Positions 10,817 through 28,894 of a stretch of DNA of 28,894 nt are shown piece by piece. The DNA is taken from positions 1 through 28,894 of IMG/VR virus record IMGVR_UViG_2534682060_000015. One strand, 5' to 3'. Position numbers and translations under genes: made by a program. Position 1 is the first letter of the stretch. Each line of letters opens with the position of its first letter. The notes under the pieces were generated by a model. It did no database searches. It saw nothing but the letters and a program-made list of their open reading frames with translations, and was not told where the DNA came from. Origin of the DNA: a virus. Taxonomy: Duplodnaviria; Heunggongvirae; Uroviricota; Caudoviricetes.

Positions 10817-10820
10817 GAGA

Positions 10821-11185: not shown

Positions 11186-11454
11186 AATTAAATATCAGAG
11201 TGGATAAACGCCAGCTATGGCAGAAAAAAGAGAACAGTGAGGCATTCAGGGATTTGCTGGTGGAAAATCTTCAGCACCGTTTCAGTGGAGAGCTGCCAGA
11301 CGCGCTGGGGAAAAAACTGGAATCTCTGACGGTGGAAATTGGCGATTATGGTTTTGTTGATGTTGAAAGCACGACTGCCAACACAGAAATCGTAAAACAG
11401 GTCGTCAACGATGTAATGAAAACCACGCTTAGCCAGCCATCCTGGCGTAACTGA
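11182..11454 (+). CDS. hypothetical protein (90 aa)
   Basis: Track ORF, translationally coupled to the upstream small ORF. Confidence 0.45.
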   Translation: MKLNIRVDKRQLWQKKENSEAFRDLLVENLQHRFSGELPDALGKKLESLTVEIGDYGFVDVESTTANTEIVKQVVNDVMKTTLSQPSWRN

Positions 11455-11553
11455 ATCCGCAAGGGGCGGTGATTGCCCCTCTCCGCCATACCCACAACGA
11501 ATTCCTTTTTCGCATGAAGTGAATGTTTATCGTATATGCATGAGGTGAGCCAC

Positions 11554-12078: not shown

Positions 12079-12086
12079 CGGCCGCA

Positions 12087-12414
12087 AAAAGTGTCAAGTT
12101 GAGCAGCTTGCAAGGTTGACACTTTACACTCTGAACACGAAAAAGTGTCAACCTCGCTGTAAGCCCCGCCATTACTGGTCTTGCGCCATGTTTGCCACAT
12201 CAAAAGGCCGAAAAAATCGCGAAAAGTGTCAAGTTGCCATGCTTAGAAATGCTAAGTTTTGTTAAGGTTTTTCGCGGAAAAGTGTCAACTCAACCTAACG
12301 GATCTTAACGCTCACGCACAACAGCTGCAGCCAACGTGTAAAGGACTGATGCGAAGCAGGGCAGCTGTCAGCCTGTTATGGTTTGTTATGCCTTACCTGG
12401 GGAAAGTGTCAACC
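12087..12414. repeat. array of six copies of (C)GC(G)AAAAGTGTCAA(G/C) immediately downstream of the HTH gene
   Basis: Copies at 12087..12098 (+), 12116..12124 (inverted), 12141..12153, 12222..12233, 12277..12289 and 12402..12414; the extended 16-mer is conserved in three copies. Confidence 0.6.
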
Positions 12415-12621
12415 GCTACCGTTTCAGAAAGCTTCAATTGCAGAGCGTTGGCAGCACCTGTCAAAACTTGTCACCCGCCGGCACAGCCAGCGGGAATTTT
12501 TTGCTCTAAACGCTCTAAGTTACAGTTGATGTGATCTGTAAACTGCGGTTGCAACTAGTAATCGTATAAAACCATCAGTTGCAGTTTTACCTAACTATAA
12601 TCACAATGATAGTTTATATAA

Positions 12622-14121: not shown

Positions 14122-14212
14122 TTGACCTCCGAGATATATTAGCGGTAATCATTAAAATTTGTAAGAACACAGCTCAAGTATGTATTTAGCTGTAGAGATA
14201 AGAATTTACTTG

Positions 14213-15340
14213 TTATTGACCATTTGGATAGTAAATTTTCATAAGCCTCTCTTTTTCTTTGTTGAATTCTTTATCAAAATCAAATTTTTTGTCTAAATTA
14301 GAATGTAAGTCATTTAACGCTTTAACAAGAACCCAAGCGCTGTGGTGGATGAATGGGTTTAATCCAATAATGTTTCCTGCAGAATTATCGTCAACTTTCT
14401 CAACTGCTAAAATCGCTTGGATTTTTTTACAGCTTTCCTGAATATTCCAATCTGAAACATGTAGTAATAATGCAGATAAAGCCATGAGTGGGTTGTTTGC
14501 TTTAATAGATGTAGGGGTGTAACTAATAATCATACGGAGTCGAGGGTGGTAGTCTCGAATCAGTCTCGCCATTCGAGTAGCTATCTCATATTTTTCGTTG
14601 AGAATTGATCTGTCAAATGTTGACGTCCCAGAGTCTTTAATTAATATAGTTCTTGCTTTTTTGACTACTGATTTAAGTCTTACATTCCAAAGCTCAGGAT
14701 TCTCATGACGGTCTAGATAGAATTGAGGATGCTTGAAATAAAGAGATTGATATACTTCCTCGTTGATATCGAACCAACTTTTGTTTATGGCGCTGAGATC
14801 GACAACATAATTATCATTGTTTCTCTTATATCTAATCAATGAGGCCTTTGCAAGGTAGATTATGTGAGGGCTTAAATTAAATGTAAAAGTGCCTTTTTCT
14901 CTTAAATCTAAGAACCATTGGCGCATGTTACGTATATCTTCTTGCGTAAAAATCTTCTCCTGAATTCCCGCACAGACCATAAGACCTATTAAGCGTGTCG
15001 CTTCAGAACCCGAGCGCATAAAATCAATTTGGCCTTCATTTGAAACAACGTTCAACTTATCATCGCCAGTATAAAAATCACAAAATGGGAGGTGAGAGTC
15101 TTTACCTAGATTGTCTCGAAATGCAAAGTGTGCTTGCTTTACAACTTTGCCGTTACTGAGAGATCTTCCTTCCGAAACGTAATAACCACCAGAAACATTG
15201 CATGCCGGGCATTCAACATCCTCTTTAACAAAATCTCTAAAACTTAGAGAAGGATCTGAGTTGCTACGTTCGAAAAGGTTTTCCAACTGCTTAGCATCCA
15301 GCTCACGCTTAAATTTTCTAGAATAGGCCGTTATCGTCAT
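14213..15340 (-). CDS. hypothetical protein (375 aa from ATG 15340; track ORF extends to TTG 15406), upstream partner of the SIR2 gene
   Basis: ATG at 15340 has AAGGAG 6 nt upstream (rc of 15347..15352); no Walker A, TIR or other motif recognised by eye; contains CPAC and PFCDFY cysteine motifs; ~90-bp gap to the SIR2 gene, same strand. Confidence 0.6.
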   Translation of the reverse strand: MTITAYSRKFKRELDAKQLENLFERSNSDPSLSFRDFVKEDVECPACNVSGGYYVSEGRSLSNGKVVKQAHFAFRDNLGKDSHLPFCDFYTGDDKLNVVSNEGQIDFMRSGSEATRLIGLMVCAGIQEKIFTQEDIRNMRQWFLDLREKGTFTFNLSPHIIYLAKASLIRYKRNNDNYVVDLSAINKSWFDINEEVYQSLYFKHPQFYLDRHENPELWNVRLKSVVKKARTILIKDSGTSTFDRSILNEKYEIATRMARLIRDYHPRLRMIISYTPTSIKANNPLMALSALLLHVSDWNIQESCKKIQAILAVEKVDDNSAGNIIGLNPFIHHSAWVLVKALNDLHSNLDKKFDFDKEFNKEKERLMKIYYPNGQ

Positions 15341-15365
15341 TTCGGTCTCCTTTCGAAGGGAGCTT

Positions 15366-15393
15366 AACTTTATCATAGGATGATCATAAAGGG
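15366..15393 (-). promoter_or_regulatory. imperfect palindrome CTTTATCATAGGATGATCATAAAG just upstream of the cassette RBS
   Basis: Arms CTTTATCA / TCATAAAG with one mismatch; holds two TATGAT hexamers on the minus strand; 14 nt upstream of the AAGGAG RBS. Confidence 0.35.
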
Positions 15394-15635
15394 AGCTGTA
15401 CGGCAAACATCACTAAGGTTGGGCCTGAAACACAAATTCCCTAAGTGCAATTTTGACGTCTAACTTACTTGATGTGCTTCAAGGCGGTTCTTACATTGTG
15501 GTATCAACAACAATAGAATGTTTTTTAAACAATTTAGATAGCAACAAGCAAGTCTGGGGGTACTTTTGGGGGTATCTAATGATTGCGTAATAGTTTTTTT
15601 ATATACATATCAATGTGTTGATTTCTACAATTTGT

Positions 15636-15653
15636 TCCTATTATCGGCACCAT
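15636..15653. repeat. attR core: second copy of TCCTATTATCGGCACCAT
   Basis: Exact 18-bp copy of tRNA-Thr 3' end (1428..1445); the 21-bp motif GGGGGTACTT(A/T)TGGGGGTAT lies inside the island near both cores (1560..1580 and 15556..15576). Confidence 0.75.
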
Positions 15654-16261
15654 CAAGAAAATCAATAACTTAGCTTAGCTTCTCTAAGAAATTGTATCTT
15701 CTGTTATCACTTACAAACGCCTATACGTTGTTATGGGCTTTGGTAGTGTAACACGTATGGGCGAGTAGTTCCCAGGCTCAACCTCGTAACAAGTTCCTTT
15801 GAAGCTGGAAGACGTGCCACCGTCTCTAAACCTTCTACCAAAACTCTTAGCAAGATGTTCCACACCTGGCGCGGTGTCCAATGATGCTACACGTCGAGAT
15901 GACGTTGCAGAGGATAAACAGGCTAAATGATGGGAAGAGTAGTTTTAAGTGCATAGTGGATTAAAGCCCACCTCTTCAAAACCTAACTTGATCGGGAAAG
16001 AATCAAGCTCTAGCACGGTTTCGTCCACCGGAGTACAACGGGTGCCTGATAAGAGAAGAACTGCTAAGACTTCATAGCTTTTGTGAAAAAGCCCTTTTTA
16101 GTGGATACGCCTACGGCGCTTATTTTTTGGGGTAGCCCATCAAAGGCGCTTTATGGCTCCTATTGTCTTGAAAATGTATCTTTACTTGTATTGTGTTTTA
16201 TGCGTAGTCTCCCTGTGTAGTATGTAACTTGTTAATTTTCATATGAATACAGAGGCACACG

Positions 16262-16414
16262 ATGAAAAACATTGCAGCTATCAAACGTAATAACCGCAAG
16301 ATTCACGCTCGTAAGTTCCTGTCTACGCCAGAAGGAAAAGCCTGGCTAGAGCGTAAACAGAGAGAGAACGAAGAAAGAAAACTCCTTAGTGAGTTGAAAT
16401 GGCTTAAGGATTGA
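16262..16414 (+). CDS. small basic hypothetical protein (50 aa)
   Basis: Hand-found ORF MKNIAAIKRNNRKIHARKFLSTPEGKAWLERKQRENEERKLLSELKWLKD with AGAGG 6 nt upstream; followed by a long hairpin. Confidence 0.35.
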   Translation: MKNIAAIKRNNRKIHARKFLSTPEGKAWLERKQRENEERKLLSELKWLKD

Positions 16415-16428
16415 ATCACCAGTAGGCG

Positions 16429-16476
16429 CATAACACATCCAGCGATCAAAGATGTGTTTATGCGCCTGATAGTGAA
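16429..16476. terminator. long near-perfect hairpin (16-bp stem) between convergent small ORFs
   Basis: AGGCGCATAACACATC (16429..16445) pairs with GATGTGTTTATGCGCCT (16460..16476); no clear U-tract on either side. Confidence 0.35.
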
Positions 16477-16480
16477 ATTA

Positions 16481-16639
16481 TTAAAGTCGTTTAGTTAACA
16501 TCGCCATTGCTTGAGCAATAATTGCAACAGCGTCCATCTCTTCACTGGAAGCGATGCAAATGCGGTAACTAATAGCCACAATGAATACATCAATAACGAG
16601 AAAGTGAATAGTGTGAAGATGTTTTGAAAGTAAATGCAT
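16481..16639 (-). CDS. small hydrophobic hypothetical peptide (52 aa)
   Basis: Hand-found ORF MHLLSKHLHTIHFLVIDVFIVAISYRICIASSEEMDAVAIIAQAMAMLTKRL with GGAGG 5 nt upstream (rc of 16645..16649); convergent with 16262..16414. Confidence 0.3.
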   Translation of the reverse strand: MHLLSKHLHTIHFLVIDVFIVAISYRICIASSEEMDAVAIIAQAMAMLTKRL

Positions 16640-17033
16640 AACTTCCTCCGGTTTTGGGATAGGAGGATTAGAACATGCATTAAATGATGTTGCAAGAATG
16701 GCAATTTACCCTAATAGTCTACTATTCACCTCAATCTACGTCAACCAATATTTGATGTAGATTTAATTTTCTTTTAAAAACAATATGTTGTTATTTGTTG
16801 AATTTTGGGGTTAGGTTGTTTTTTGAACGTTTTCATCAAGTGTAAAGATACGTTTAGCCTTCATAGTGAGTTCAGTTACTGTCTTTTTCTCTGAAATCGG
16901 CGCAAACGTGATCATCGCTTGAGGTTGCTGCTCTTACTTCTCAAATTGTGATGGAGAACGATAAAGGTTAGAGGGCACTTTTATTTTTTTAAGCAAGTGT
17001 ATAGCATAAGAATAATCTAAAAAGGGAGGTTAT

Positions 17034-17585
17034 ATGCGCAGGTCTGCATTTGTGAGGATGATGATTTTTACAACGTTGTTTGTAGGGGGAACTTCTACCG
17101 CAGTTGCTAAAAACTGCAAAAAAGGAATACCTTGTGGTAACTCGTGTATAGCTGTTGGTAAGACGTGCCGGATTGGCTCTTATGCCCCTTCATCTTATAA
17201 AAATCATTCATACTCTTATCCTTCATCCTCTATTCGAAGCTCGCAATCAAATAATTCACGAAAAACTGAAGGAGTGAAAACGACTCCTGCTGCCAAAAAT
17301 TATCTTTGCCAATACTCTATTGCATCAATCGAAAACGGACGTTTAGGGGCATTACGTGTTCAGGGATACGCACAAGTAACTTTATATGCAGATAGCTTCA
17401 AGGCTAACAGATTAAATGGAACATATTTGATATCGCCAAAACTGAATGCTAACGGCAAGTTTATGATGGCAGATGATAAAAGCAAGGTTTATGCTTATGA
17501 TTCTTGGCTATTAAATTTTGCAATAAGCGATCGTATCACAAGAACGACAGAACAATGGGATCGATGTAAGCTCAATCAAAAATAA
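17034..17585 (+). CDS. secreted hypothetical protein with Sec-type signal peptide (183 aa)
   Basis: N-terminus MRRSAFVRMMIFTTLFVGGTSTAVA-KN (basic n-region, hydrophobic core, AVA cleavage motif); GGGAGG 4 nt upstream; Cys-rich mature N-terminus. Confidence 0.55.
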   Translation: MRRSAFVRMMIFTTLFVGGTSTAVAKNCKKGIPCGNSCIAVGKTCRIGSYAPSSYKNHSYSYPSSSIRSSQSNNSRKTEGVKTTPAAKNYLCQYSIASIENGRLGALRVQGYAQVTLYADSFKANRLNGTYLISPKLNANGKFMMADDKSKVYAYDSWLLNFAISDRITRTTEQWDRCKLNQK

Positions 17586-17603
17586 CAGTTAGAGAAGCTC
17601 TTG

Positions 17604-17660
17604 TAGAGGCATTATTGAGTTATTGATTTTAATATTTTTGTGCCTCTATGGGCTTTTTTT
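17604..17660 (+). terminator. terminator-like hairpin plus T-run after the secreted-protein gene
   Basis: TAGAGGCA (17605..17612) pairs with TGCCTCTA (17641..17648) over a long loop, then GGGCTTTTTTT (17651..17660). Confidence 0.35.
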
Positions 17661-18740
17661 GCCTTTTTGCAAAGTAGGAGAGAGCACAGGAATCGTTAAA
17701 ATTAATTATTGGGGTATTTAAGGTTATTTTCAGGTGGTTTAAGGGTATTAAACTTGATTTAATTGATTAAAATATAAACAGATAGTCCTGTATCTTATTG
17801 ATTTATAAGGTTATTTTTAAATTAAGGTAAATAAAAAATAAATAGCCATAAATAGCTATAAATACATCTAAATACCTTTATCCCTTCCCTTATGGCTAGA
17901 TTGCGAGAAGTGCTTAACGCGATTTTCACCGCCCCCCGATCTGGAAAATCCAGAATCCCCAAATATCAGCAAGGAATTTTCTTGCGTAATCAACATCGTT
18001 TTTACCAATTAAATCATTACACAGAAAGCCTTTCTGTAATGTCTCTCACTAAACTTTCACTAAACACGAGAATGATCGGTTTTATGTCGGATCAGATGCT
18101 AGAAACAGCACCACGTCTCACAAGGGCTGTAAGCGATGAAACCAGTGTTTATGCGGGTGCAGGTCAAAATATGGGCCAAAATCCATTTAACATAATAAGC
18201 GTAATATGCACTAAGGAACACATAGAACGCCTTGAGTTGATGTATAAGGGGAAAAGTGGTGGATTTTTTACGTAGGAGCACGAGAGGGCTTCTATTGACT
18301 TTTGTATGCTATGAAATATAATAGAAGGTTTTTATTTTTATGTTGATAGTGATTGCACATTAAAGATTGAAAGCAAATTTAAACATAAATTTTCAACACG
18401 TGAAAGAACTTGTTCGACAAATGATAGAACGTTTATTGAGCAACAATTTTGCAGTGATGCGCTATATGCCGCATAACATAAGGCTTTGCTGATGATGACG
18501 CAAAAGTGAAGAAAGCTAACATTGCACTTTTTAAGCTACTTTTCATTGGATTTTTACGTAGGAATTACACAGGGATTAATCATCAATTACATTGAATTTA
18601 AGCCTGTTTTAGATGTTTAATTTTGGTAGCAAGAAACACTTTTAGAAGATCATTGCACAGATGTTATGTGATGATTGGATGTAACGGTAGGTCACTGTGA
18701 GCTACCCCTATCAAGTCTGATACCCGATAAGTATAAATAA

Positions 18741-18843
18741 CACCTGGGAAATGAGTTCCGATCTATTTAGGAAATAACCGTGGAAGTGGTTTCCTACCTA
18801 CCTAGGAAATGAGTTCCTATCACCTAGGAAATGATTTCCGACA
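18741..18843. repeat. cluster of palindromic repeats (CACCT)(A/G)GGAAATGA(G/T)TTCC in a long ORF-free region
   Basis: Copies at 18741..18763, 18801..18817 and 18821..18843, plus the related GGAAATAACCGTGGAAGTGGTTTCC between them; each unit carries inverted GGAA/TTCC half-sites. Confidence 0.55.
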
Positions 18844-19704
18844 ATACTATAATTAAACTACAATTAAACTATATAATATAATTCTTTTTTATCTTTATAA
18901 GAATAATTATAGGGATACCCGTTAGGGAGTCTAACGACTATCCCTTAATCTATTGGCATTCGCCAGAACCTTGCACAAGTTAGAGTGTTAGTCGTTAGAC
19001 TGCTTGTCATAACACATAGTTTTTGTTTGTTGATGTTAGTTAGTAGATCTATGTTCGCTAATGCCGCTCACAACGAATATGTAATCTACTATGTGCAAAT
19101 AGCCTACGGCTTGCGTAAGGCTAAATAGTCTTGCGCTGTGCGCTGTGCGCTTCAATAGTTCCATTGATGAGGCTTACGCCAATCTAACGATCATCAATCT
19201 ATTTAAGAGAAAATCTATTGTGCAATACTCTGACGAGTGCAATAACCTTGTGTGCTACGCGTTAGCGATGTTAGCACATAGACACAGACAACAACCAACA
19301 ACAAACAAAAAAGAATGGTTTTAGTAGTTGAAGGTTAAATAAGTTTCTACCGCTTAAATCAAGCCGTAGGCGAGCTAAACGTATATAAGGCAGGGAAACC
19401 TTAGCGGTAATAGATTAGCTCATTATAGAGCTTCTGAGGAGCTTTACAGGTATTTTATAAGGTGTCTGAAATTAGAGTTTATCTATCATCTCCTTTTCAT
19501 ATACCTAACAAATACAAAATAAGCCCCTTAAATAAACCTCTGGCGAGCTAAACTGTCATTACATAAGGGAATGTATTGTTTTTATCAAAACCTCGTTAGA
19601 ACGCGTTTTAGAGAATAAGGAAGAATAGCATCACACAGAAGAGCACGAATTGCTAAGTAAAATCATAACATACTGAAAAATGATTAATATTTTATGGGCG
19701 GGGG

Positions 19705-19733
19705 TTGACAAAAGCCTTTAGTTATGGTAAAGT
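19705..19733 (+). promoter_or_regulatory. sigma70-like promoter (TTGACA, 17-bp spacer, TAAAGT)
   Basis: Perfect -35 TTGACA at 19705..19710, 17-nt spacer, -10-like TAAAGT at 19728..19733; about 120 nt upstream of the small ORF at 19857. Confidence 0.4.
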
Positions 19734-19856
19734 AATATTAGGGGCAGGAAAACATTCCTATCCTCTAAATAATTAAACCAATGCACCGCACTTTGAAGCC
19801 CAAGAGGCTTGCAAGGTGTCTTTTTCTTTTAACCAAATAGAATAGGAGGTTAATTA

Positions 19857-20033
19857 GTGAAGTATTTCACTTCTCAAGATGTAGTTGAAGCCTGGAAACG
19901 TGGTGAGATCAACCGCTTTAGGGTAAGAATGAATAGGAACACAGCGCGACGCTGTGGTTATCCAGAGCGTGAAAAATGTTTTGACGATGCACTAAAAATT
20001 ATTGATGAACTGCGTAAAGCAGAGAAAGAATAA
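19857..20033 (+). CDS. small hypothetical protein (58 aa)
   Basis: GTG start with AGGAGG at 19845..19850; VKYFTSQDVVEAWKRGEINRFRVRMNRNTARRCGYPEREKCFDDALKIIDELRKAEKE. Confidence 0.4.
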   Translation: MKYFTSQDVVEAWKRGEINRFRVRMNRNTARRCGYPEREKCFDDALKIIDELRKAEKE

Positions 20034-20056
20034 TAACAGGAGAAGGAGAAAACCAA

Positions 20057-20245
20057 ATGAATATTAATTTTGATTCTGCAACTTATAACGCGTTGTTAAA
20101 TCGTGCAAAGGCAGAAGGGAAATCAATTCCAAAACTTGTTAATGAATTACTAATTACAGTCCTTACAAAGGAGGAACTAAATGATCAAAAATATCAAAAC
20201 AATTGCCGAAGCGAAAGCCAAATGTCTAAATCAGAAAGATGGTAA
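20057..20245 (+). CDS. ribbon-helix-helix (CopG/Arc-like) DNA-binding protein
   Basis: MNINFDSATYNALLNRAKAEGKSIPKLVNELLITVL follows the beta-strand/helix/helix pattern of RHH regulators; AGGAGAAGGAG upstream. Confidence 0.55.
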   Translation: MNINFDSATYNALLNRAKAEGKSIPKLVNELLITVLTKEELNDQKYQNNCRSESQMSKSERW

Positions 20246-20849
20246 ACAAAAATATGTAGTCGTTGAGCAGTGGTTGAAGATGTTTAAAAAGTGGTTCTCA
20301 CCGTCAGGTAATGAATACACCGCTACACTGCCAGCCGTTGAAATCTATAGCTATATAGCTGGATTCAATGAACAAGGGCAAGAATGTTACGCCACTCAAA
20401 AAACATTATCTAATATTGGAATGGTTAGTGATCGCCAGGTTCGCAATATTATAAATATGTTTGTTGATATGGGAGTTCTTTCTGTAGAGGCTCGGGACGG
20501 GCAAACATCACTCTATAAAGCATTACCATTCACAGATGCACATATTACTCCCCCTGGAGAGTCATCACTACCTGATCCTTCTGAGAAAGAAGACGAATCT
20601 AATGAAATATTGAATGTTTCAGAAATCATCATTGAAGAAGAAACACAGGAATCAGAGTTCCCTGAGCGGCCCGAAATTTTTACTTGGCTTCTTTCCCTTG
20701 ATAAGAAGAAACCACCGCACGAAGAAACAGAAGATTTTGTAAAACGAGCATTAGATTCAAAGAATATCTATCTTGAGAAACAGGCTTTTCACGATCTGAT
20801 AATATCTCTAAGAGAAAAAAGTGAAATATACGATTCAATACCATTCTAA
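20181..20849 (+). CDS. winged-HTH protein resembling N-terminal domains of phage/plasmid replication initiators, acidic C-terminus
   Basis: YATQKTLSNIGMVSDRQVRNIINMFVDMGVLSVEARDGQTSLYK is an HTH-like segment; AAGGAGG 6 nt upstream of ATG 20181; acidic tail. Confidence 0.45.
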   Translation: MIKNIKTIAEAKAKCLNQKDGKQKYVVVEQWLKMFKKWFSPSGNEYTATLPAVEIYSYIAGFNEQGQECYATQKTLSNIGMVSDRQVRNIINMFVDMGVLSVEARDGQTSLYKALPFTDAHITPPGESSLPDPSEKEDESNEILNVSEIIIEEETQESEFPERPEIFTWLLSLDKKKPPHEETEDFVKRALDSKNIYLEKQAFHDLIISLREKSEIYDSIPF

Positions 20850-21032
20850 GGAGAGTAAATGACTTATAACAGCACTACATTTCGTCTTTTGAAATTAAAC
20901 AAAGATTTTGAATTGTTTATCACAAACAATCAATAACAACAGATCGGGCAATACATATGGCAAATGCATTTATGGCGATATTCATCGTAACTATGGCATT
21001 AAGTTTTTATAATCCACATAAAAAGAGGGAAA

Positions 21033-21419
21033 ATGGGAAGAAAGAAAAAGAACAACTTAAAACGTATTGAAAAAAACAGTAATTTCAATTCAACAAGACA
21101 ACGTCCACCGACACATACCAATAACGAAATTCCAGGGGAAGAGATAATCTTCATTTTAGAATCTAACAGCCCACCACTTACAAACGAAGAATTAGAAATT
21201 ATTCAATCAATGGGTGATGGTGTGTATTTCAAACCCAGAACAAGAAAGACAACGATTATAGAACCTGGCACATTAAAGAAATGGCAGCTGTTAAATTTTA
21301 CCAGCTACAGGCACTATATCGGTTTTAATAGTTTCAACAATCAGGTAGGCGGCGTTACAGAAACAGATCTGATGCAGCACCTGATCGACACTCTCGCATC
21401 TAACAAACGTTCAAACTAA
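21033..21419 (+). CDS. hypothetical protein (128 aa)
   Basis: Track ORF; first gene of a tightly packed three-gene block. Confidence 0.4.
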   Translation: MGRKKKNNLKRIEKNSNFNSTRQRPPTHTNNEIPGEEIIFILESNSPPLTNEELEIIQSMGDGVYFKPRTRKTTIIEPGTLKKWQLLNFTSYRHYIGFNSFNNQVGGVTETDLMQHLIDTLASNKRSN

Positions 21420-21436
21420 AAATAAAAGGAACAACA

Positions 21437-21640
21437 ATGATCGACCATATACAGGAAACACAATTATTTCAGATGATCTTGTCTGATGCAAAAAACTATG
21501 CTGAGTTAATTCGGCTGGCAAAAGAAACAGAAGACTACGAAGCATTAGAGCGTTACCGTGATGAAGTGCTGACGCTCAAGACACCTTTTAACATCGTATT
21601 GAATATGATTAATGATGCATTACAAGGAGAATACGCATAA
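21437..21640 (+). CDS. hypothetical acidic protein (67 aa)
   Basis: Track ORF; stop overlaps the next start. Confidence 0.4.
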   Translation: MIDHIQETQLFQMILSDAKNYAELIRLAKETEDYEALERYRDEVLTLKTPFNIVLNMINDALQGEYA

Positions 21641-21948
21641 TGGAAGAAGATATTAGCAATGCAATGGAACAACTTTTAGATCTGACTATCTCACTACAAA
21701 CAAGAATAAATCAAGCCTATTCAGATTTATGCGATTACACGCTCTCTCAATGCGTTATTAGCTTAATGAAGGTGAATGTAAGCCTTGACGATTTTATCTC
21801 TCTGGTGAGCGATTTAGAGCTAATTGAGGACGATGCCAAGATGTGCACTCAAACCATCACAGACACCGCCAGCACGTTAAAGGCTGCAAGTGAAGAGATT
21901 CAGCAATTAGTAGATGATTTAGCAAAAAGTGCTATTTTCTCTAAATGA
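21640..21948 (+). CDS. hypothetical acidic protein (102 aa)
   Basis: Track ORF, translationally coupled to the upstream ORF. Confidence 0.4.
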   Translation: MEEDISNAMEQLLDLTISLQTRINQAYSDLCDYTLSQCVISLMKVNVSLDDFISLVSDLELIEDDAKMCTQTITDTASTLKAASEEIQQLVDDLAKSAIFSK

Positions 21949-22852
21949 TAATGAAAATCATTTGCATTTATAACGATTTCATTATATAATGATATTAGGG
22001 GTAGATAAAAAGGTTTTGACTGGTGTTAATCCTTTTCCTGTCATAAATCCCTGCATATGGAAGGTGATAGCCTCAAAGGTTGAATGGCATTAACCTCTAA
22101 CAAATATTACCTTCCATCCCCTCAAGAAGTTTTAGAATAATCATAACTCCCTCTTTGATTGTTGATTGTTTCTACGTTGTGTTGATGAATGTTGTTAGGC
22201 ATTGTGCTTAATTTTGATAAAAGCGGGTAGGTGTTATCTCCTTGCCCTTCCCGCTCTTATTTTTCATCTATGCTTATCCTAAAGCTCCTTATTTTGTCCG
22301 AAAACATTAAAGAGCCTTACACTGATAGTTATATTTTATAACTATTTACTAACATCATTAAACTCTTATTTAATGACAGAAGTTAGTAACAGAATAATCT
22401 ATTAAGTTGTTGTCAAAAACAATCATCTGCATAGCGTTAGCCGCAAGCAGAGAGAGTTTAGCTAAGAATTGTGCAATAACCTTTGGAAATATTGATAGCA
22501 AAACGGGTTTTATAGACTGCAAATCTATAATCTTTGGTTGTAAAAAAGCTTTTTCTGAAACGGTAGATTACTGTTGGTGTAGTTAATCCCTATTAAAATT
22601 TAATCTGTGAGTAGATTGGAACAGTGATTCCTTAAAATCTGACTGGTGCATCCACACCATGAAAGATAGCGGTTAGCCACCGCGCCCCGAATAGATATTC
22701 CTGATTGATTCCGCATGTTTTCCTAAGAGCATGTTTTCAGGAATATCTGTTCACCCTTTAAACCTATCTTTAAGCATGTTTAATAAGCATTCTTAGAGAT
22801 ACGTTTAAAACCTCCTCAAGGTTTTACTTATCGCTGTGTATTGCCCGACACG

Positions 22853-22912
22853 TTAATAAATCCCCCTCGCTATTGTCAGATTGAACCTCTTATAGCCTGG
22901 GGGATTTATTAA
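22853..22912. promoter_or_regulatory. perfect 14-bp inverted repeat TTAATAAATCCCCC / GGGGGATTTATTAA upstream of the structural gene block
   Basis: Arms 22853..22866 and 22899..22912 separated by 32 nt; about 30 bp upstream of ORF 22941. Confidence 0.45.
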
Positions 22913-22940
22913 ATTCCAACATAATGGAATCGTTATATAA

Positions 22941-23150
22941 ATGAAACAAGAAATTATCCTGAAATATGGCAATGAAAAGTTAACACTAACTGAAGATGTG
23001 TTGAATGCTACAGCCTACGCGCTTGGCATCACTCCCACAGAATTAAAGAAACAGTGTGAACGTCTTTATAAGGCTGAAAGCAATAAACCATCTCACCAAG
23101 ATTTGATTAATGCTAAAGCTCAACAAATCAAACAATCTAAGGAAAAATAA
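22941..23150 (+). CDS. hypothetical protein (69 aa)
   Basis: Track ORF; stop overlaps the start of the next gene. Confidence 0.4.
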   Translation: MKQEIILKYGNEKLTLTEDVLNATAYALGITPTELKKQCERLYKAESNKPSHQDLINAKAQQIKQSKEK

Positions 23151-23524
23151 TGGCTATTTTAAAATTAAGCGATGTTTTCCCACATCGTAAAAGCATCACT
23201 GACGTAGTGAGCTATGCAACCGACCCTTACGCGGCTGTAGAAAGCAAAAAATTTGCAGCACTTGCACAAGATGTAACGTGCGGCGACCTCATTGATTCAT
23301 CCGGCGCTAAATATGTTAGCGGCGCTGATGTTCTTGTCGTTGTGTCTGACTTCGTAACTGCTGATTCAAATAAAACAGTTAACGTGCTTCGTGCTAATGC
23401 CGGACTTGTTTGCATCAAAGCTGATGCCCTGAATGCCGAAGGCGCTGTAAAAGAAGCTGCTATTGCAGCTCTCGCTGCTAAAGGCTTCCAGCTTGAAGGC
23501 TTCCACTCTGTTTTCACATCTTAA
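23150..23524 (+). CDS. putative phage head protein (decoration- or scaffold-like, 124 aa)
   Basis: Ala/Val-rich small protein immediately upstream of the capsid-like gene; functional call is by position and size only. Confidence 0.3.
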   Translation: MAILKLSDVFPHRKSITDVVSYATDPYAAVESKKFAALAQDVTCGDLIDSSGAKYVSGADVLVVVSDFVTADSNKTVNVLRANAGLVCIKADALNAEGAVKEAAIAALAAKGFQLEGFHSVFTS

Positions 23525-23540
23525 GAAGGAATAAATAATA

Positions 23541-24569
23541 ATGATTATCGGAAATGAAGTGGTTGATCTTGCTCCACTGTTCGAATTAAACGACTCACGC
23601 AATTACCTACTGTCTACTCTGGATTTTACTGATCCTGTGCCTGTAGAAAGTCACAAAGTGGCTGTTTCCCAGCTTATCGAGAGCAATGAATCTCTGTTCA
23701 ACCATCCTACAAGCCGTTTTAGCTCTGAGCATAACGTTACTAAGCGTGAGAACGGGGAAGAATGGCTGATTGAAATCCCTTACTTCCTGCGTGAAGACCT
23801 GATCAAACCGCAGGACGTGCAAGGCAAACGCAAAGCCGGAAGCTCTATTGAAGAAACACTGCCGGATCTGTATGCGGAATATATCGCTAAACACAATGTT
23901 GCATTCCAGCGCACTAAAGAAAGCATCCTCGCGGCTTCTCTGTTCTCTGGCAAGACACATACCCCGAAAACTGACGATGTTCTGATCGATTACAGCATTC
24001 TGTTCGGTGTGTCTCCAATGACTGCAACCGTTGACGCATCCAGCACCAACACAATGACCGTATTCAAGCAATTTGATCAGATGCATACGGATATGATTGC
24101 TAAGGCACAAAGCCAGGCTGCAACCATTGAGCGTGTTGTTGTGTTCTGTAAACCTGCGGCATTCAACGCTATTCGTTACAGCGTTGGCATGGTTAATGCG
24201 TTCCAGTATGCAAGCCCTGTAGACGATGCAAACGTGGTGTTTAATGTGCGTTCTCTGCTGCCTGGTGTAACTACTTTCACCATTCCAGGAACTAACATTG
24301 ATCTGATCAAAGTGACTGATCCGCTGCTGCTGGCACATATGACCGCAGACGCTGTAGCTGTTCCTAAATTCGCTAAAGGTGCAGGTGTTTACCAATCTAT
24401 TTATGGCGCTCCTTCCAGTTCCTTCGATCTGCTGTCCCAAGGTGCAAAAGAGTATTACAGCTATGCTTTCGAATCGAATCGCGGCGACGCAGTGCACGTA
24501 GTGACCGAGAATAGCTCGCTTGTGGTTAACCACGGTGTTGGTTTCTCTGTTCAGATTACAGTGGCGTAA
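23541..24569 (+). CDS. putative phage major capsid protein (342 aa)
   Basis: Size and position after a small head-like protein; C-terminal segment ...VVNHGVGFSVQITVA resembles the C-terminus of lambda-type major capsid protein E as I recall it. The antisense 337-aa ORF on the opposite strand is treated as spurious. Confidence 0.45.
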   Translation: MIIGNEVVDLAPLFELNDSRNYLLSTLDFTDPVPVESHKVAVSQLIESNESLFNHPTSRFSSEHNVTKRENGEEWLIEIPYFLREDLIKPQDVQGKRKAGSSIEETLPDLYAEYIAKHNVAFQRTKESILAASLFSGKTHTPKTDDVLIDYSILFGVSPMTATVDASSTNTMTVFKQFDQMHTDMIAKAQSQAATIERVVVFCKPAAFNAIRYSVGMVNAFQYASPVDDANVVFNVRSLLPGVTTFTIPGTNIDLIKVTDPLLLAHMTADAVAVPKFAKGAGVYQSIYGAPSSSFDLLSQGAKEYYSYAFESNRGDAVHVVTENSSLVVNHGVGFSVQITVA

Positions 24570-24737
24570 ATAAAGCGTTAATAGACGATTCCCCATCGTC
24601 TGGAAATAATCGGGGGGCAATAAGGGTAAAGGGATTAACTAACCTGTAGGCGCAAATACAGTAACGAATCTCTTTGCCCTTATTGTTTTTCTACTGTCTA
24701 CAAACCCAAATAAAAATATATATGTGAGAGAAAACCA

Positions 24738-24935
24738 ATGAATACAGAAAATTCACAGGCATTAATTCTTAAATCTGTAAAAGAACTGGCAGCTATTAGC
24801 GATGACTCAATAATCAATGTCAGTGCCTTATGCAGAATGCTTTCAATTGATGCAAATAATGTGCGCCAGCGTGTCTTTCAGACTGGGTGCAGCACTTTCG
24901 AAGCAATTCAATACTATTGCTCTAAAAAACAATAA
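24738..24935 (+). CDS. hypothetical protein (65 aa)
   Basis: Track ORF between the capsid-like gene and the 613-aa gene. Confidence 0.35.
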   Translation: MNTENSQALILKSVKELAAISDDSIINVSALCRMLSIDANNVRQRVFQTGCSTFEAIQYYCSKKQ

Positions 24936-24969
24936 TAAACAACAATCATAATACAGGGAAACAATTAGC

Positions 24970-26811
24970 ATGTTAGACCTTACCGTCAGCCGCTTATCAA
25001 ACGTTGTCACCTTCCAGGTTGATCGACCATCATTAGAGAAAGCAAAAGCAGAAGTAGAAAAACTTCGTAAACAAATGGCGGCTGTGAAAGATATAGAATT
25101 GCGTGTTAAGACACATAAACAATCAACCGCTAAAGCAAAAAAAGACGTAGACGATATTGCTAAAAAGCAAGCACAGGCTGATAAAGCTAATGCTAAAGCA
25201 CAATTAGCCGCTCAACGTGTAGTTGCAAGAGAACAAAAAGCCCTGGCAGCACGCAAAGAGAAGGCAGACTTAAAACTGTTAGACGTTGGATCAAGCATTA
25301 GTGCATTGCACCGCCTTTCTGTAGCGGAACAATATAAAGCTATTGCACAGGCTAGAGAAATTGCCCTCCAATATGAAAGAGGAGCTATTAGTCTGGCACG
25401 TATGAATAGCCAAATGAAACGCCTACAACAGCAACAACGTAAGATTAATGGCAATCGTAACGCTCACGCTAAAGCCTATGCACCTGTTAAGGGTAGCGGG
25501 AGTATTGGCGGCGGTGCTGCGGCTGTTATGCTGGGTGGCTTAGGCGCTGGCGCTACGTATATGGCTATGAGCAAAGCCTCTGAATTTGTTACTAACAGCT
25601 TTGCGAATGCTGAAACGCTGGGTGAATTGTATAGCCGTGCCAAGCTGGGCGGTGTAGACGTTAACCAGATGAACAATATTGAGCAATGGGCATATAAAAA
25701 CGGCGTTGATTCAATGATGGGGGATCAAGGTCGTAGGAAGTATCTCGATCAGATGAAAGATGTACGGGAGAAGGCTACTAAATCTTATGATGAGGCTGAA
25801 TATGTAGTTGATAAGAAAACTGGTAAAGGAGAATGGAAGGGCGGCGATAGCGGCATCAATACTTTAATGAATGAAAGATTCCTAACTAAAAAGGATCTAA
25901 AAGACTTTGCTGATAATCCGGCTGGTCTGGTTAGTAAAGCAGTTCAGGGAATGGTAGCTAAAGGCTATTCAGATGCACAAATCGGTAGTCGTCTGGAAGA
26001 TCTGGCTGATGATTTGATGCTCACCTCTAAATACTGGACACGCTCCGCTAAAGAAGTGGAACAATCAGCACGAGAACAACGAGAATCAGGGCGCTGGGTA
26101 ACGCAGGCACAACAGGAAAGCGTTATTAAATTCCGTGAACTGAATAATGCACTTAGTGGGCTTTCTGACTCACAAGGGATCGCCTTTGTTGATGGCTTTA
26201 TGAAATCTCTTGATCCGAAAGTGATTGAAGAGTTTAAAAAGAGCATGGTTGCAATGCTGCCAATGTTTACCAAATTAGGCGAGGCTATCGGCGGATTGGT
26301 TAACGCTGTAATGAAAGCAATCAACTGGCTGATGAAAAACGACGAGAAGACGGCAGCTATTCAAAAGAATTTAGGGGATGCACCGCCACTATCTAACGAA
26401 GGAATGAAGCAGAATCTTTCTAATCTCACTCCTGATCAATATAAAGGCGCTGGCACCGGAACAACTAAGCCAGATAACAGCAATTCCCTGGTTAACACTA
26501 TTAAAAGCTGGTTTATGCCAGAAGAAACGGTAGGTGGGGCGCAGGCTGTAAATCAATACAGTCTCGAAGGACAAAACATTGCAAATCTGAAACAGAGTGC
26601 AGCACAACAAGCTCTCAAGGCTCCTTCTTACACCTTTGCACCTGTTATTAACTTCAATCCAGAATTACAAGTAAATGCAGAAGTGCCGCTAACTATCGAA
26701 TCAGACACCGGACGATTGAGCGAATTTATCGACTTCAAATCAAAGGCATCCTCCGCTGAGTTTAGCAAGCTATTAACGCTGGGTGTTATGTCAGGCGGGT
26801 CAACCTATTAA
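24970..26811 (+). CDS. phage structural-type protein with N-terminal coiled coil and glycine-rich hydrophobic segment (tape-measure-like or ejection/internal protein, 613 aa)
   Basis: Long Lys/Ala/Gln-rich predicted coiled coil (aa ~20-170), then GSGSIGGGAAAVMLGGLGAGATYMAMS glycine-zipper segment. Confidence 0.4.
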   Translation: MLDLTVSRLSNVVTFQVDRPSLEKAKAEVEKLRKQMAAVKDIELRVKTHKQSTAKAKKDVDDIAKKQAQADKANAKAQLAAQRVVAREQKALAARKEKADLKLLDVGSSISALHRLSVAEQYKAIAQAREIALQYERGAISLARMNSQMKRLQQQQRKINGNRNAHAKAYAPVKGSGSIGGGAAAVMLGGLGAGATYMAMSKASEFVTNSFANAETLGELYSRAKLGGVDVNQMNNIEQWAYKNGVDSMMGDQGRRKYLDQMKDVREKATKSYDEAEYVVDKKTGKGEWKGGDSGINTLMNERFLTKKDLKDFADNPAGLVSKAVQGMVAKGYSDAQIGSRLEDLADDLMLTSKYWTRSAKEVEQSAREQRESGRWVTQAQQESVIKFRELNNALSGLSDSQGIAFVDGFMKSLDPKVIEEFKKSMVAMLPMFTKLGEAIGGLVNAVMKAINWLMKNDEKTAAIQKNLGDAPPLSNEGMKQNLSNLTPDQYKGAGTGTTKPDNSNSLVNTIKSWFMPEETVGGAQAVNQYSLEGQNIANLKQSAAQQALKAPSYTFAPVINFNPELQVNAEVPLTIESDTGRLSEFIDFKSKASSAEFSKLLTLGVMSGGSTY

Positions 26812-26858
26812 TCATCACTGTGGGGCGGTTTAGCCCCCTTAAATAAGGATTACAAATT

Positions 26859-27536
26859 ATGGCAATGGGTCCGTTAACCATTGGTCGCCCGACTGAGGCG
26901 AAAATCAACAGCACAAGCAACGATAGCAACGGTAGAACAACTAAAGGGGGTAACGGCTTTGCGATCATTACCTCTAACCTCGGCAGTGGTGCAAATGCTG
27001 CTTACAATGACTACCAGGCATTATCATTTGATAGCGTGGAATCGACGAAAGTTAGCCGAAATGCAGACGTTACAAGCTATGCCGTCGAATCAGGATCAGA
27101 AGTTAGTGATCATGTTCAAATACGGAATAACAAGTTCACATTACAAGGGCGTATCTCTGAAACCGTATTGAAGCTCAATCCCGATATGATTAAGAATGCG
27201 GGAATTAACGGCAATCGACGTATGCTTATGCTTGAATACCTAAATCAGTTGATGGACAGTCGCCAACCTTTCCTACTTGTCACTGAGTTAAAAAATTATG
27301 ACAACGTTGTGTTAGTTGGCATGTCTTATGAAGAAGAAGCAAGCGAAAGTCTATTGTTTACTCTTGATTTTGAGCAAATCCGTCTTGTCTCTAAAGCAAC
27401 TACAAGCGCAATTGCGGTAAAAACAGCACCAAATAAATCTGTAGGGGGACAGGTTAAAATGCAGGTAAATACAACAGAACAGAAAAATCAAAAAAGCCCA
27501 GGGCAAGACGTTGTAACGCCAGTATTTAAACAATAG
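26859..27536 (+). CDS. hypothetical protein, possibly virion-associated (225 aa)
   Basis: Track ORF following the structural genes; Ser/Thr/Asn-rich N-terminus. Confidence 0.35.
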   Translation: MAMGPLTIGRPTEAKINSTSNDSNGRTTKGGNGFAIITSNLGSGANAAYNDYQALSFDSVESTKVSRNADVTSYAVESGSEVSDHVQIRNNKFTLQGRISETVLKLNPDMIKNAGINGNRRMLMLEYLNQLMDSRQPFLLVTELKNYDNVVLVGMSYEEEASESLLFTLDFEQIRLVSKATTSAIAVKTAPNKSVGGQVKMQVNTTEQKNQKSPGQDVVTPVFKQ

Positions 27537-27616
27537 CCTTAAACGCCTATGAAACGCTCTGTAACGAGATAATCATAAAAGAGGCATCAGTCTATATTGA
27601 AGCCTCTTTATTACGT

Positions 27617-28894
27617 CTATAGCGTTGTTTTACGCCTTAAATTTGATTTTTTATTGATTGATAAGCCTTTCTCTATTTCAGGGTAGCGTAAAAGCTCAAT
27701 ATATTTTTTAAGCTCTATTGGAGAAGCTGCATTTTTGCTATATGTGCGGAATGTTTCTGTATTGCCGCGTGTATGGCCCAGGAGAAGGGCGATCCTGTCT
27801 TCTGGAATTTGATTTCGATCAAGAAGCTGTGCTACTCCGTGTCTCAGAGAATGAAACACTTTCCTTTCTGTTCCCTTTTCCCCTAAAGCCTTTCGTTTAG
27901 CTCTTGTAAATCGTTGTGTATGCCACGTAGAGCGTTTACCGTCAGCACGCTCTGTAATGCTGGCGTGATAGAACAAAAAGCCATTGTGAGGCTTTTCACG
28001 AAGAGATAACACCAATGGAGTGATAAGGCTATGCACAGGCACAAGACGTGCCGCAGCTTTCGTTTTTCCCTGTGTGATTTCAAAACACAGCACACCTTCG
28101 ATCTCTTTCACATCGTCTATTGTGAGACTTGCTATCTCATTGATCCGCATCCCTGTATATAAACCGATAAGACATAAAGCCGTCATTTCTTTGTTTTCTG
28201 CTGAATTACCGGAAAATACTTGCAACACCTGCAATAGCTCTTTGTTAGAAAATGCCTCGTAGCTCTCTCTACTTTGTGCCACATCAAGCCTATGCCCTCG
28301 CCAGGGGGAGAGCGCCCTTTCTGGCGCATCGTGGTAACGTGATGAAGCTAATTCCCATAGCTGGGCCATTGGGCTGATATAATTTGCAATTGATTGTTGT
28401 GAAAGAGTTTTTTGCATGTGTTCAATCCAGCCTGTAACAGTGGTGCGGCTTACATCTTGCAATGCAATATCAGGCTTTTTACGGTAGGAGAGAAACATCT
28501 CTACCGCTTTTCTTGCCTTAGCTAAAGTGGCTGGCTTCTTCTTCGTGCTGTTAATTGTCAGGTAGATTTCAAGAATTTTAAGCAATGACGGACACGAAGA
28601 CGCTGTATCTTGCATTCTGGTAGCTGTTTTGGCGTATTTAGCCTTACTGCGTAACAGTTCCAGCGTGTTTTCTATTGTGCTGTTTACAGGGGCAACACTC
28701 TCCCGTAAGCAATGGTATTCATCTGCAATCTGATCACGCTTTCTACGTGCAACACGAAGATTACTTGTGTGCAGACTTCTGACAAACGTCCTTTTTCCTT
28801 CAAAAAAGGGCTGCATATACACAGGCAGCGTGATCCTTAAATAGTAGTTACCGTAAGAATCACAGATTAAGTATTGGTTAGGCTTGTATCTCAT
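27617..28894 (-). CDS. tyrosine recombinase / phage integrase (425 aa), start codon at the window edge
   Basis: C-terminal catalytic signature FHSLRHGVAQLL...LLGHT...TFRTYSK (HxxR, catalytic Tyr); RINEIASLTIDD segment typical of the family; the reverse complement of the last window bases is ATGAGATAC. Confidence 0.8.
   Translation of the reverse strand: MRYKPNQYLICDSYGNYYLRITLPVYMQPFFEGKRTFVRSLHTSNLRVARRKRDQIADEYHCLRESVAPVNSTIENTLELLRSKAKYAKTATRMQDTASSCPSLLKILEIYLTINSTKKKPATLAKARKAVEMFLSYRKKPDIALQDVSRTTVTGWIEHMQKTLSQQSIANYISPMAQLWELASSRYHDAPERALSPWRGHRLDVAQSRESYEAFSNKELLQVLQVFSGNSAENKEMTALCLIGLYTGMRINEIASLTIDDVKEIEGVLCFEITQGKTKAAARLVPVHSLITPLVLSLREKPHNGFLFYHASITERADGKRSTWHTQRFTRAKRKALGEKGTERKVFHSLRHGVAQLLDRNQIPEDRIALLLGHTRGNTETFRTYSKNAASPIELKKYIELLRYPEIEKGLSINKKSNLRRKTTL

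Follow-up and report, generated by a model that had tools for sequence, protein, structure and literature searches.

A chromosomal island at thrW of Escherichia coli with predicted capsid and tail-core genes of its own: a candidate satellite of virulent Stephanstirmvirinae myoviruses

Introduction

Satellites of virulent phages have been well studied mainly in Vibrio (elements resembling phage-inducible chromosomal islands, PLE; phage-inducible chromosomal minimalist islands, PICMI). PLE are not known to carry a capsid or tape measure gene of their own. Capsid-forming phage-inducible chromosomal islands (cf-PICIs) encode small and large terminase subunits, portal, protease and connectors, and are described as stealing only tails. 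The helpers of two Streptomyces satellites, MulchMansion and MiniFlayer, are presumably siphoviruses, and to our knowledge no tape-measure/tube-initiator pair has been described for either satellite. In the literature, cf-PICIs are presented as integrated satellites of ~10–15 kb that form capsids from an HK97-fold protein of their own and obtain the missing parts from a helper (10.1101/2022.09.08.507074), PLE as forming small capsids from the coat protein of the helper phage ICP1 with the scaffold TcaP (PMC10002752), and MulchMansion and MiniFlayer as having encapsidation genes of their own while other essential functions are missing (PMC10690885). The vacuolating autotransporter toxin pathogenicity island (VAT-PAI, also PAI-APECO1-thrW) of extraintestinal pathogenic Escherichia coli (ExPEC), has been described as a ~20-kb island of 41% GC at the tRNA gene thrW (PMC7545054). 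Here we describe, from that chromosomal site, a 28,894-nt stretch of DNA (IMG/VR record IMGVR_UViG_2534682060_000015; "the window") that contains an integrated element, hereafter the island (element B), reaching from position 15654 to ~160 nt past position 28894. The island, which encodes a predicted capsid, head decoration protein, tape measure and tail tube initiator, most likely represents a phage satellite of a kind not described before, and the balance of the evidence tips, modestly, toward a satellite of virulent ~150-kb myoviruses of the Stephanstirmvirinae (phAPEC8/phi92-like phages).

By analogy, the island most resembles a cross between a cf-PICI, in having its own capsid, and a PLE, as a putative parasite of virulent myoviruses. 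Like a cf-PICI, it has an HK97-fold capsid protein of its own instead of remodelling a helper protein. As a contrast to cf-PICIs, no terminase, portal, protease or connectors were found in it or in the related islands examined; in addition to a decoration protein it encodes a tape measure and a tube initiator, the capsid protein belongs to the lambda-E type (PF03864), and its proposed helpers are virulent myoviruses of ~150 kb. The likeness to PLE of Vibrio cholerae and its helper ICP1 would be one of lifestyle: an integrase of its own, an apparent tie to one lineage of virulent myoviruses, genetic exchange and module turnover, with replication functions and interference with helper heads and tails likewise to be expected of the island. 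It differs from PLE in its own capsid and tape measure genes, and no protein homology to PLE was seen. MulchMansion and MiniFlayer are similar in combining their own encapsidation genes with the lack of other essential functions, and different in hosts and helpers. Unlike in P4-like satellites, no match to Psu, Delta, Sid, alpha primase or cos was found in 15654–28894. With VAT-PAI the island shares the thrW site and GC content; VAT-PAI is defined in the searchable literature by its toxin gene, whereas the backbone of the island is satellite-like. No description of the island as a satellite, nor of any satellite of Stephanstirmvirinae, was found in the searchable literature, the coverage of which is incomplete, so that an earlier description is possible.

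Results and Discussion

A Capsid and Tail-Core Gene Block

An earlier note, made from the sequence alone, had singled out 22941–27536 as a capsid-type gene block, and every open reading frame (ORF) that it placed there is present (coordinates of all features are given in Table 1). The block had been described as a decoration/scaffold-like plus major-capsid-like gene pair, and both assignments hold. The 342-aa protein matches Pfam PF03864 (Phage_cap_E) with 68.4 bits against a cut-off of 22.9, its residues 19–341 covering positions 14–329 of the 329-position profile, and also matches PHROG 29 (major head protein). A profile built from its family matches the solved capsid proteins 9zbi_A (1e-17) and Phi92_gp124 (1.5e-17, full length), as well as the capsid proteins of phages PhiTE, Bas63 and Sf14. 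By these profile matches it is predicted to be a lambda-E-type major capsid protein with the HK97 fold.

The 124-aa protein encoded directly upstream matched no sequence family, and its identity came from a structure model. The AlphaFold model, built on 25 homologues (predicted local distance difference test, pLDDT, 77), was matched best by Foldseek to the decoration proteins of Sf14 (E 6e-4, TM 0.63), Bas63 and PhiTE, with E-values from 6e-4 to 1e-2 and TM scores of ~0.6 for these chains, with weaker matches to the YSD1, phage 21 (SHP) and lambda (gpD) proteins. When a profile of the 124-aa protein was compared with the Protein Data Bank (PDB), the three best matches, all weak, were the same Sf14, Bas63 and PhiTE proteins. 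In the capsids from which these decoration proteins come, the major capsid proteins are in turn matches of the 342-aa protein, and the gene order, decoration before capsid, is that of gp115–gp114 in phAPEC8. The model thus identifies the 124-aa product as a predicted head decoration protein of the gpD/SHP type.

The capsid gene had further been said to be followed by a coiled-coil structural protein, possibly tape-measure-like. The 613-aa protein bears this out: it matches PHROG 16051 (tail length tape measure; 2e-31), phAPEC8 gp104 (2e-23) and Phi92_gp134 (2e-20), which predicts a tail length tape measure protein, at 613 aa in the island vs. 659–662 aa in phages. The 225-aa protein encoded next is better described as a predicted tail tube initiator. 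It matches Pfam Dit_like (PF21821) with 97 bits against a cut-off of 24.2, Phi92_gp135 (7e-54) and the tube initiators of PhiTE and Pam3, and its counterparts in phages of the BASEL collection are annotated as tail tube initiators. The two genes are immediately adjacent, and Phi92_gp134 and gp135 are found in one PDB entry. The tube-initiator gene is missing from islands of Klebsiella, Serratia, Kluyvera and Citrobacter.

The window had also been said to contain no ORF of portal or large-terminase size, and this holds: its ORFs of at least ~400 aa encode ProA, two integrases, a remnant of the Ash family, a DUF927 primase, a SIR2 protein and its partner of 397 aa, and the tape measure protein, and scans of all ORFs with PHROG and Pfam found no portal or terminase gene. 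Within the 13.4 kb of the island the same scans found no gene for portal, terminase, protease/scaffold, sheath, tube, baseplate or fibres, and no pseudogene fragment of portal, terminase or sheath on any ORF. None of the ten island proteins compared with NCBIfam had a match there, nor had any of the seven compared with PADLOC. Neither outcome that the note had named as refuting its reading was seen: the 342-aa protein is a predicted capsid protein of HK97/lambda-E type, and the structural proteins match phage proteins throughout.

Relationship to Stephanstirmvirinae Phages

In phAPEC8, the head cluster comprises terminase, portal, gp116, the decoration protein gp115 (132 aa) and the capsid protein gp114 (333 aa); after the capsid gene follow sheath, tube, chaperone, gp105 (72 aa), gp104 (the tape measure, 662 aa) and gp103 (233 aa). 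The counterparts in the island correspond to two excerpts of this morphogenesis cluster, matching in sizes and order, with no sequence match between the 124-aa protein and gp115 or between the 65-aa protein ahead of the tape measure gene and gp105. The capsid protein aligns over its full length with phi92 gp124 and with phAPEC8 gp114, to which it is 24% identical. Matches to the tape measure protein were found in 134 of 50,697 phage records, and those listed with taxonomy are all Stephanstirmvirinae; the tape measure protein of a Klebsiella island is 40–42% identical to Stephanstirmvirinae proteins. The tape measures of the island and phAPEC8 (gp104) share an N-terminal MLEINxSKIxNxVTFxVD and a C-terminal LTLxxxSGQSxxGG motif and diverge in the middle, as would be expected if the protein must dock into the phage tail machinery. 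The tube initiator is 53% identical to phAPEC8 gp103, with stretches at 83% nucleotide identity, and tube initiators across the islands are 53–60% identical to those of Stephanstirmvirinae; the allele in the window is slightly nearer to Phapecoctavirus (53% vs. 50%), and another E. coli allele slightly nearer to Justusliebigvirus (60% vs. 56%).

The strongest similarities at the nucleotide level, 93.6–98%, are found only with Stephanstirmvirinae and lie in the regulatory half of the island. The 62-aa protein is 98% identical in amino acid sequence to gp101 of Bas60 (PaulScherrer), and its gene is 97.6–98.2% identical over 167 nt to Justusliebigvirus phages. In the 222-aa winged-helix protein, residues 30–122 share 88% amino acid identity (93.6% at the nucleotide level) with an early protein of 328 aa from Phapecoctavirus Mt1B1_P17 (locus L009, 3725–4711), which has two HTH_36 domains and a C-terminal MUG113 domain, presumably GIY-YIG-like (T5orf172), and is possibly a homing-endonuclease-like or regulatory early protein of Stephanstirmvirinae. 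Such near-identical early-gene DNA indicates recent exchange and, therefore, encounters of island and phage within single cells. A phage closer to the island was found neither among the 50,697 phage records nor among the best 80 IMG/VR loci. The island is about one-tenth the size of the phage genome.

Chromosomal Setting and Boundaries of the Island

The window is a segment of the E. coli chromosome, with proA at 1–1254 and the tRNA-Thr gene thrW at 1369–1444, and the structural block belongs to a larger element with its start at 15654. An exact second copy of the 18-nt 3′ end of thrW (1428–1445) lies at 15636–15653, so that two elements are in tandem at this site; this copy forms the left attachment repeat of the island. 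In E. coli strain M9682-C1 (locus L001) the minimal island directly adjoins thrW and ends in a right repeat, CCTATTATCG-CACCA, an imperfect copy located ~160 nt beyond the integrase start. These ends give a size of ~13.4–13.6 kb and place the right end just outside the window. The convergent integrase reported at the end of the block is confirmed as a tyrosine integrase near this right end.

In the avian pathogenic E. coli (APEC) strain PE144 the island makes up the first ~13.5 kb of the VAT-PAI region. The toxin gene vat and a MarR-type regulator gene lie beyond the island integrase and right repeat, beside an integrase fragment (locus L106, 15573–21126). That vat might be cargo of the island could be ruled out on this ground, and the classical VAT-PAI is, on the same ground, a composite of the island and a separate remnant.

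Distribution, Selection and Module Exchange

About 40 loci, fetched from genomes and IMG/VR, were compared. The same gene order is found throughout, in Escherichia, Klebsiella, Citrobacter, Kluyvera, Buttiauxella, Scandinavium and Serratia: a left half with a small basic ORF, variable cargo, the 58-aa ORF, the 62-aa ORF, the winged-helix gene and the 128-aa ORF, and a right half with a non-coding gap, a small ORF, decoration, capsid, a further small ORF, tape measure, an optional tube initiator and the convergent integrase. The capsid protein has 51 relatives at 39–99% identity, all ~343 aa or truncated versions thereof. Those that are named belong without exception to Enterobacterales (Escherichia, Cronobacter, Klebsiella, Citrobacter, Enterobacter, Dryocola, Serratia), several lie on contigs of 4–5 Mb, and each context inspected is of the island type.

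Ratios of nonsynonymous to synonymous substitution rates (dN/dS), calculated by the Nei-Gojobori method against orthologues, are 0.06–0.16 for the capsid, 0.18–0.31 for the tape measure, 0.06–0.19 for the tube initiator and 0.03–0.18 for the integrase; the decoration gene, in comparisons with appreciable divergence, gives 0.12–0.21. These values indicate purifying selection on the structural genes.

The family has at least three integrase types and, in E. coli, at least two sites of insertion: one is thrW, and the other adjoins a LysM/M23 peptidase gene and the genes of E. coli type III secretion system 2 (ETT2). At the latter, three E. coli loci from Logan assemblies (L107–L109) combine the same decoration and capsid module with another integrase (406 aa), a 633-aa tape measure and a 218-aa tube initiator. 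Klebsiella islands have the same LysM/M23 left flank. Recurrent contigs of ~13.6 kb in public assemblies were considered as free circles and rejected, as the three places inspected have chromosomal flanks at this second integration site.

Among islands whose integrases are 98–99% identical, capsid alleles range from 73 to 99% identity, tape measures from 61 to 99%, tube initiators from 59 to 100% and winged-helix proteins from 32 to 96%; these four modules are thus exchanged between islands. Many E. coli islands with integrases and tape measure proteins 98–99% identical swap the entire head module (22941–24569 of the window) for genes encoding 65-, 127- and 343-aa proteins (15519–17150 in M9682-C1). 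The 343-aa capsid-like protein is 20% identical to the capsid protein of the window, has no Pfam hit and comes with its own 127-aa partner; its nearest phage matches, all weak, are capsid proteins of Aeromonas myoviruses. The pattern of swapping is consistent with an arms race. The exact module combination of the window is found with at least 80% query coverage in 34 of 5,426 complete E. coli genomes; part of the block is present in 583 of them, and part of the queried region 12300–28894 in 1,249.

The Island as a Satellite, and Alternative Explanations

The island combines an integrase and attachment repeats of its own with an incomplete set of virion genes, which is one of the general marks of a satellite. 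The earlier note had left open a capsid-remodelling satellite module or a remnant prophage. The island's defined attachment boundaries, a partial gene set under selection, conservation across genera and exchange of DNA with phages make a satellite better supported than a remnant; the remodelling part of the idea falls away, since the compact element does not resemble Sid-, CpmAB- or TcaP-type remodelling modules and has its own capsid, decoration, tape measure and tube-initiator genes. In the model that we favor, infection by a helper-type phage would trigger the island via regulators common to both, and the island would excise and replicate from the repeats and AT-rich region near 18.7–18.9 kb. 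Its capsid and decoration proteins would assemble on the portal and scaffold of the helper into shells sized for ~13 kb, which would exclude the 148-kb helper genome; its tape measure and tube initiator would seed tails on helper baseplates, and the helper terminase would package island DNA. Portal, terminase, scaffold, sheath, tube, baseplate and fibres would all be stolen from the helper, and interference with the helper, protecting the host population, would be a side effect. That the island is the first recognized member of a widespread satellite family of Enterobacteriaceae, one that makes its own shell and tail core, steals the remaining virion parts, carries helper-copied regulators and encodes a new ~450-nt RNA, a strategy that would differ from all those described, is a broader proposal, which we put forward tentatively and at somewhat less than even confidence.

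Several observations weigh against this model. The junction expected of an excised circle (attP) was not found in metagenome contigs, viral contigs or complete E. coli genomes, and no complete E. coli genome record spans at least 80% of it; the partial matches resemble tandem arrays of thrW islands. The IMG/VR matches are proviral regions, with no free genomes of ~13 kb among them. No pac or cos site and no small-terminase-like or packaging-redirecting protein was identified in the island. With a capsid protein just 24% identical to that of the proposed helper, compatibility with its portal and scaffold is uncertain, and the advantage of a private tape measure protein lacks a rationale. Some strains have insertion sequences (IS) in the tape measure gene, and occupation of one chromosomal site in about one-fifth of complete E. 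coli genomes could be explained by vertical inheritance. The model also draws on analogy, and we know of no published satellite with the gene set of this island.

The same lack of any packaging function found, together with the stacking of defence elements at thrW (such as the neighboring SIR2 gene matching PDC-S25), would suit a defence-only island, whose divergent capsid, tape measure and tube-initiator products, made upon infection, would serve as dominant-negative decoys that poison the assembly of helper heads and tails and shield nearby cells, with no transfer of the island in particles. The helper-type termini of the tape measure could allow entry into helper tails, and interference with tail or capsid assembly is a known defence on satellites and islands according to two reports (PMC11364771, PMC12987554). 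However, at 24% identity the capsid protein would hardly co-assemble with the helper lattice, there would be no sense in a matching decoration protein unless the island builds a shell of its own, and the seven proteins scanned gave no PADLOC match; integrase, attachment sites, a candidate origin and the spread over sites, integrases and genera point instead to a mobile element, and we consider the decoy explanation unlikely. We give similarly little credence to the possibility that the island is a satellite of some other, closer and perhaps temperate helper, its matches to Stephanstirmvirinae reflecting shared ancestry and occasional recombination. Capsid and tape measure identities of just 24–42% to Stephanstirmvirinae would agree with it, as would capsid profile scores that are about equal against PhiTE, Sf14, Bas63 and Pseudomonas phages and a second capsid allele weakly nearest to those of Aeromonas phages. 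Against such a helper stand the nucleotide segments of 93.6–98% identity, which are shared with Stephanstirmvirinae only, the restriction of tape measure matches to that subfamily among those listed with taxonomy, the end motifs in common with phAPEC8 gp104, and the lack of any closer phage in the record sets searched.

Least probable by a wide measure, and close to refuted, is a decaying prophage that has kept capsid and tail genes by chance beside its integrase. In its favor are the location of phage-type structural genes alongside an integrase, at a tRNA gene, the IS elements that some copies have in their tape measure gene, and the AT-rich ORF-free stretches, which could be eroded genes. 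But the same partial gene set is found intact and in the same order from Serratia to Escherichia, with dN/dS values of 0.06–0.3, defined ends at ~13.4 kb and no pseudogenized neighbors (no portal, terminase or sheath pseudogene by PHROG or Pfam), and all 51 homologues of the capsid protein with at least 39% identity are ~343 aa or truncated, in contexts that were island-type wherever inspected.

If the satellite model is correct, a private capsid and tape measure without portal or terminase would represent a new division of labor between satellite and helper, and a natural experiment on which virion parts need to match. In E. coli, Klebsiella, Citrobacter and Enterobacter there would be a satellite family linked to phages of the phAPEC8/phi92 type; the classical VAT pathogenicity island of ExPEC would have a phage satellite as its backbone, and a pathogenicity-island backbone present in about one-fifth of complete E. 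coli genomes would have a route of transfer. Phages of the phAPEC8/phi92 type are in use, and have been suggested, as therapeutics against APEC, ExPEC and Klebsiella; gaps in their host range could be due to resident islands that hijack or block them.

Regulatory Half, Leader and Candidate Origin

Table 1. Annotated features of the island, from left to right (positions in the window).
Feature	Position	Strand	Remarks
attL, left attachment repeat of the island	15636–15653	.	TCCTATTATCGGCACCAT, exact copy of thrW 3′ end
Candidate structured RNA, ~450 nt	15669–16125	+	terminal hairpin, then T-run
Basic ORF, 50 aa, just downstream of the RNA	16262–16414	+	78–100% identical across Escherichia and other genera; no family match
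Variable cargo: 183-aa protein and 127-aa ORF	17034–18275	+	found in only some islands
Candidate replication origin or operator	18742–18910	.	three 22-nt direct repeats and one imperfect palindromic site, then AT-rich tract
Conserved 58-aa protein, opens regulatory operon	19857–20033	+	homologues 33–98% identical across genera
62-aa protein, ribbon-helix-helix-like by sequence reading	20057–20245	+	shared with helper-type phages
Winged-helix (HTH_36) protein, 222 aa	20181–20849	+	candidate replication initiator or regulator
128-aa core protein	21033–21419	+	homologue in 39 of 40 loci compared, Serratia locus excepted
Pair of small, acidic proteins of helical type, 67 and 102 aa	21437–21948	+	Escherichia-type islands only; no family match
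ORF-free leader of capsid operon	21949–22940	+	992 nt; no ORF above 59 aa
Helix-turn-helix (HTH)-like protein, 69 aa, opens capsid operon	22941–23150	+	no family match
Predicted head decoration protein, 124 aa, gpD/SHP-like fold	23150–23524	+	AlphaFold model and Foldseek
Predicted major capsid protein, 342 aa, Phage_cap_E, HK97 fold	23541–24569	+	Pfam, PHROG, profile search
Hairpin, 19-nt arms, just past capsid gene stop	24618–24685	+	terminator annotated at this place in phAPEC8
Conserved HTH-like protein, 65 aa, ahead of tape measure gene	24738–24935	+	kept in most lineages
Predicted tail length tape measure protein, 613 aa	24970–26811	+	PHROG and phage homologues
Predicted tail tube initiator, 225 aa, Dit-like baseplate protein	26859–27536	+	Pfam and solved homologues
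Tyrosine integrase (DUF6538, SAM-like and catalytic domains)	27617–28894	−	convergent with structural genes, near right end

The ~1 kb of ORF-free DNA that had been noted before the structural block is real and appears to be the leader of the capsid operon, with a promoter-like site at 21961–21990 and, 29 nt before the first start codon, a hairpin with 21-nt arms at 22853–22912. In other lineages a non-coding gap of ~560 nt is kept upstream of the capsid operon; the leader sequence is not conserved between lineages, and, as read from the alignment, a terminator-like hairpin before the small first ORF recurs. This arrangement suggests that the capsid operon may be controlled by read-through of the leader hairpin. 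The first gene, for the 69-aa protein, has positional equivalents with an ILKY(K/G)(D/N)E motif in other island lineages. Past the capsid gene, where the island has a hairpin, phAPEC8 likewise has an annotated terminator directly after its capsid gene, and the profile of the 65-aa protein that follows in the island weakly matches sigma-factor region 4 (E 0.03).

The regulatory operon is preceded by a sigma-70-like promoter at 19705–19733, found by promoter scan ahead of the gene for the 58-aa protein. The dN/dS of the latter is 0.04–0.16 in unsaturated E. coli and Klebsiella comparisons. The 62-aa protein looks like a candidate ribbon-helix-helix DNA binder, to judge from its sequence. The 222-aa protein scores just under the Pfam cut-off for HTH_36, and its PHROG matches to replication initiators are weak (3.5e-6). 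The 128-aa protein belongs to a group of ~700 sequence clusters, the named matches among the 120 listed being all Enterobacteriaceae; its dN/dS is 0.15–0.32, and its AlphaFold model is poor (pLDDT 60, predicted TM score 0.26). A scaffold-like or inhibitor-like role for the 67- and 102-aa proteins is speculation.

Repeats followed by an AT-rich tract are a typical origin layout, and such a layout is seen in the candidate origin or operator of the island. Its repeats (18742–18843) share a GGAAAT...TTCC core of the GGAAATGAGTTCC type, with six matches to the core observed and 0.63 expected. A 35-nt motif beside them (18702–18736) is 91–100% identical in Citrobacter islands and metagenome-derived loci, and is itself present three times in one of the loci compared (L013). 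The repeat motif is absent from the phage loci examined and, in IMG/VR, occurs only in contigs of the proviral type.

Of the two proteins in the variable cargo, the 183-aa protein has a hydrophobic N-terminus resembling a signal peptide and matches two PHROG families without assigned function, 2578 and 14768. A 46-nt stretch (~17895–17941) at the beginning of the 127-aa ORF is 91% identical to many phages of the Justusliebigvirus type; in phage Antha the matching stretch sits in a run of tiny annotated ORFs.

A Candidate Structured RNA at the Left End

Between the left attachment repeat and the basic 50-aa ORF lies a conserved block that is a candidate for a new class of structured RNA of ~450 nt. 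The block retains 70–80% nucleotide identity in islands whose capsid proteins are just 52–59% identical. The RNAalifold consensus has 91 pairs, 27 of them with compensatory double changes; 96.8% of the alignment cells are paired, the covariation score is 0.312 vs. at most 0.085 for slid controls, and none of the shuffles reached the observed covariation score or percentage paired, with ~3 independent lineages contributing to these values and a single-sequence z-score of only −0.45. One-sided G-U changes and the terminal hairpin with its T-run favor the + strand. Neither the RNA block nor the island has an Rfam match, the RNA block having none even at E ≤ 10.

A 52-aa hydrophobic ORF on the minus strand (16481–16639) faces the 50-aa ORF downstream of the RNA; its counterpart in M9682-C1 (8843–9001) is a RefSeq hypothetical protein. 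The 50-aa and 52-aa ORFs could encode an RNA-binding partner or a small toxin pair.

A Second Element Between thrW and the Island

The other element of the tandem, element A, is a separate satellite of the P4/PICI (phage-inducible chromosomal island) type at 1445–15635, inserted in thrW ahead of the island. Its genes include integrase, AntA/B, Ash, Icd, a DUF927 primase, ProQ/FinO and PerC. In strain BCE049, element A is followed by a lambdoid prophage, and it is therefore independent of the island. Its cargo, on the minus strand at 12622–15406, is a low-GC (32%) SIR2 gene matching the PADLOC candidate system PDC-S25 together with the gene for its 397-aa partner, one example of the defence elements that are stacked at the thrW locus. 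Near both ends of element A, at 1563–1582 and 15556–15575, are repeats of the form GGGGGTACTT(A/T)TGGGGGTAT.

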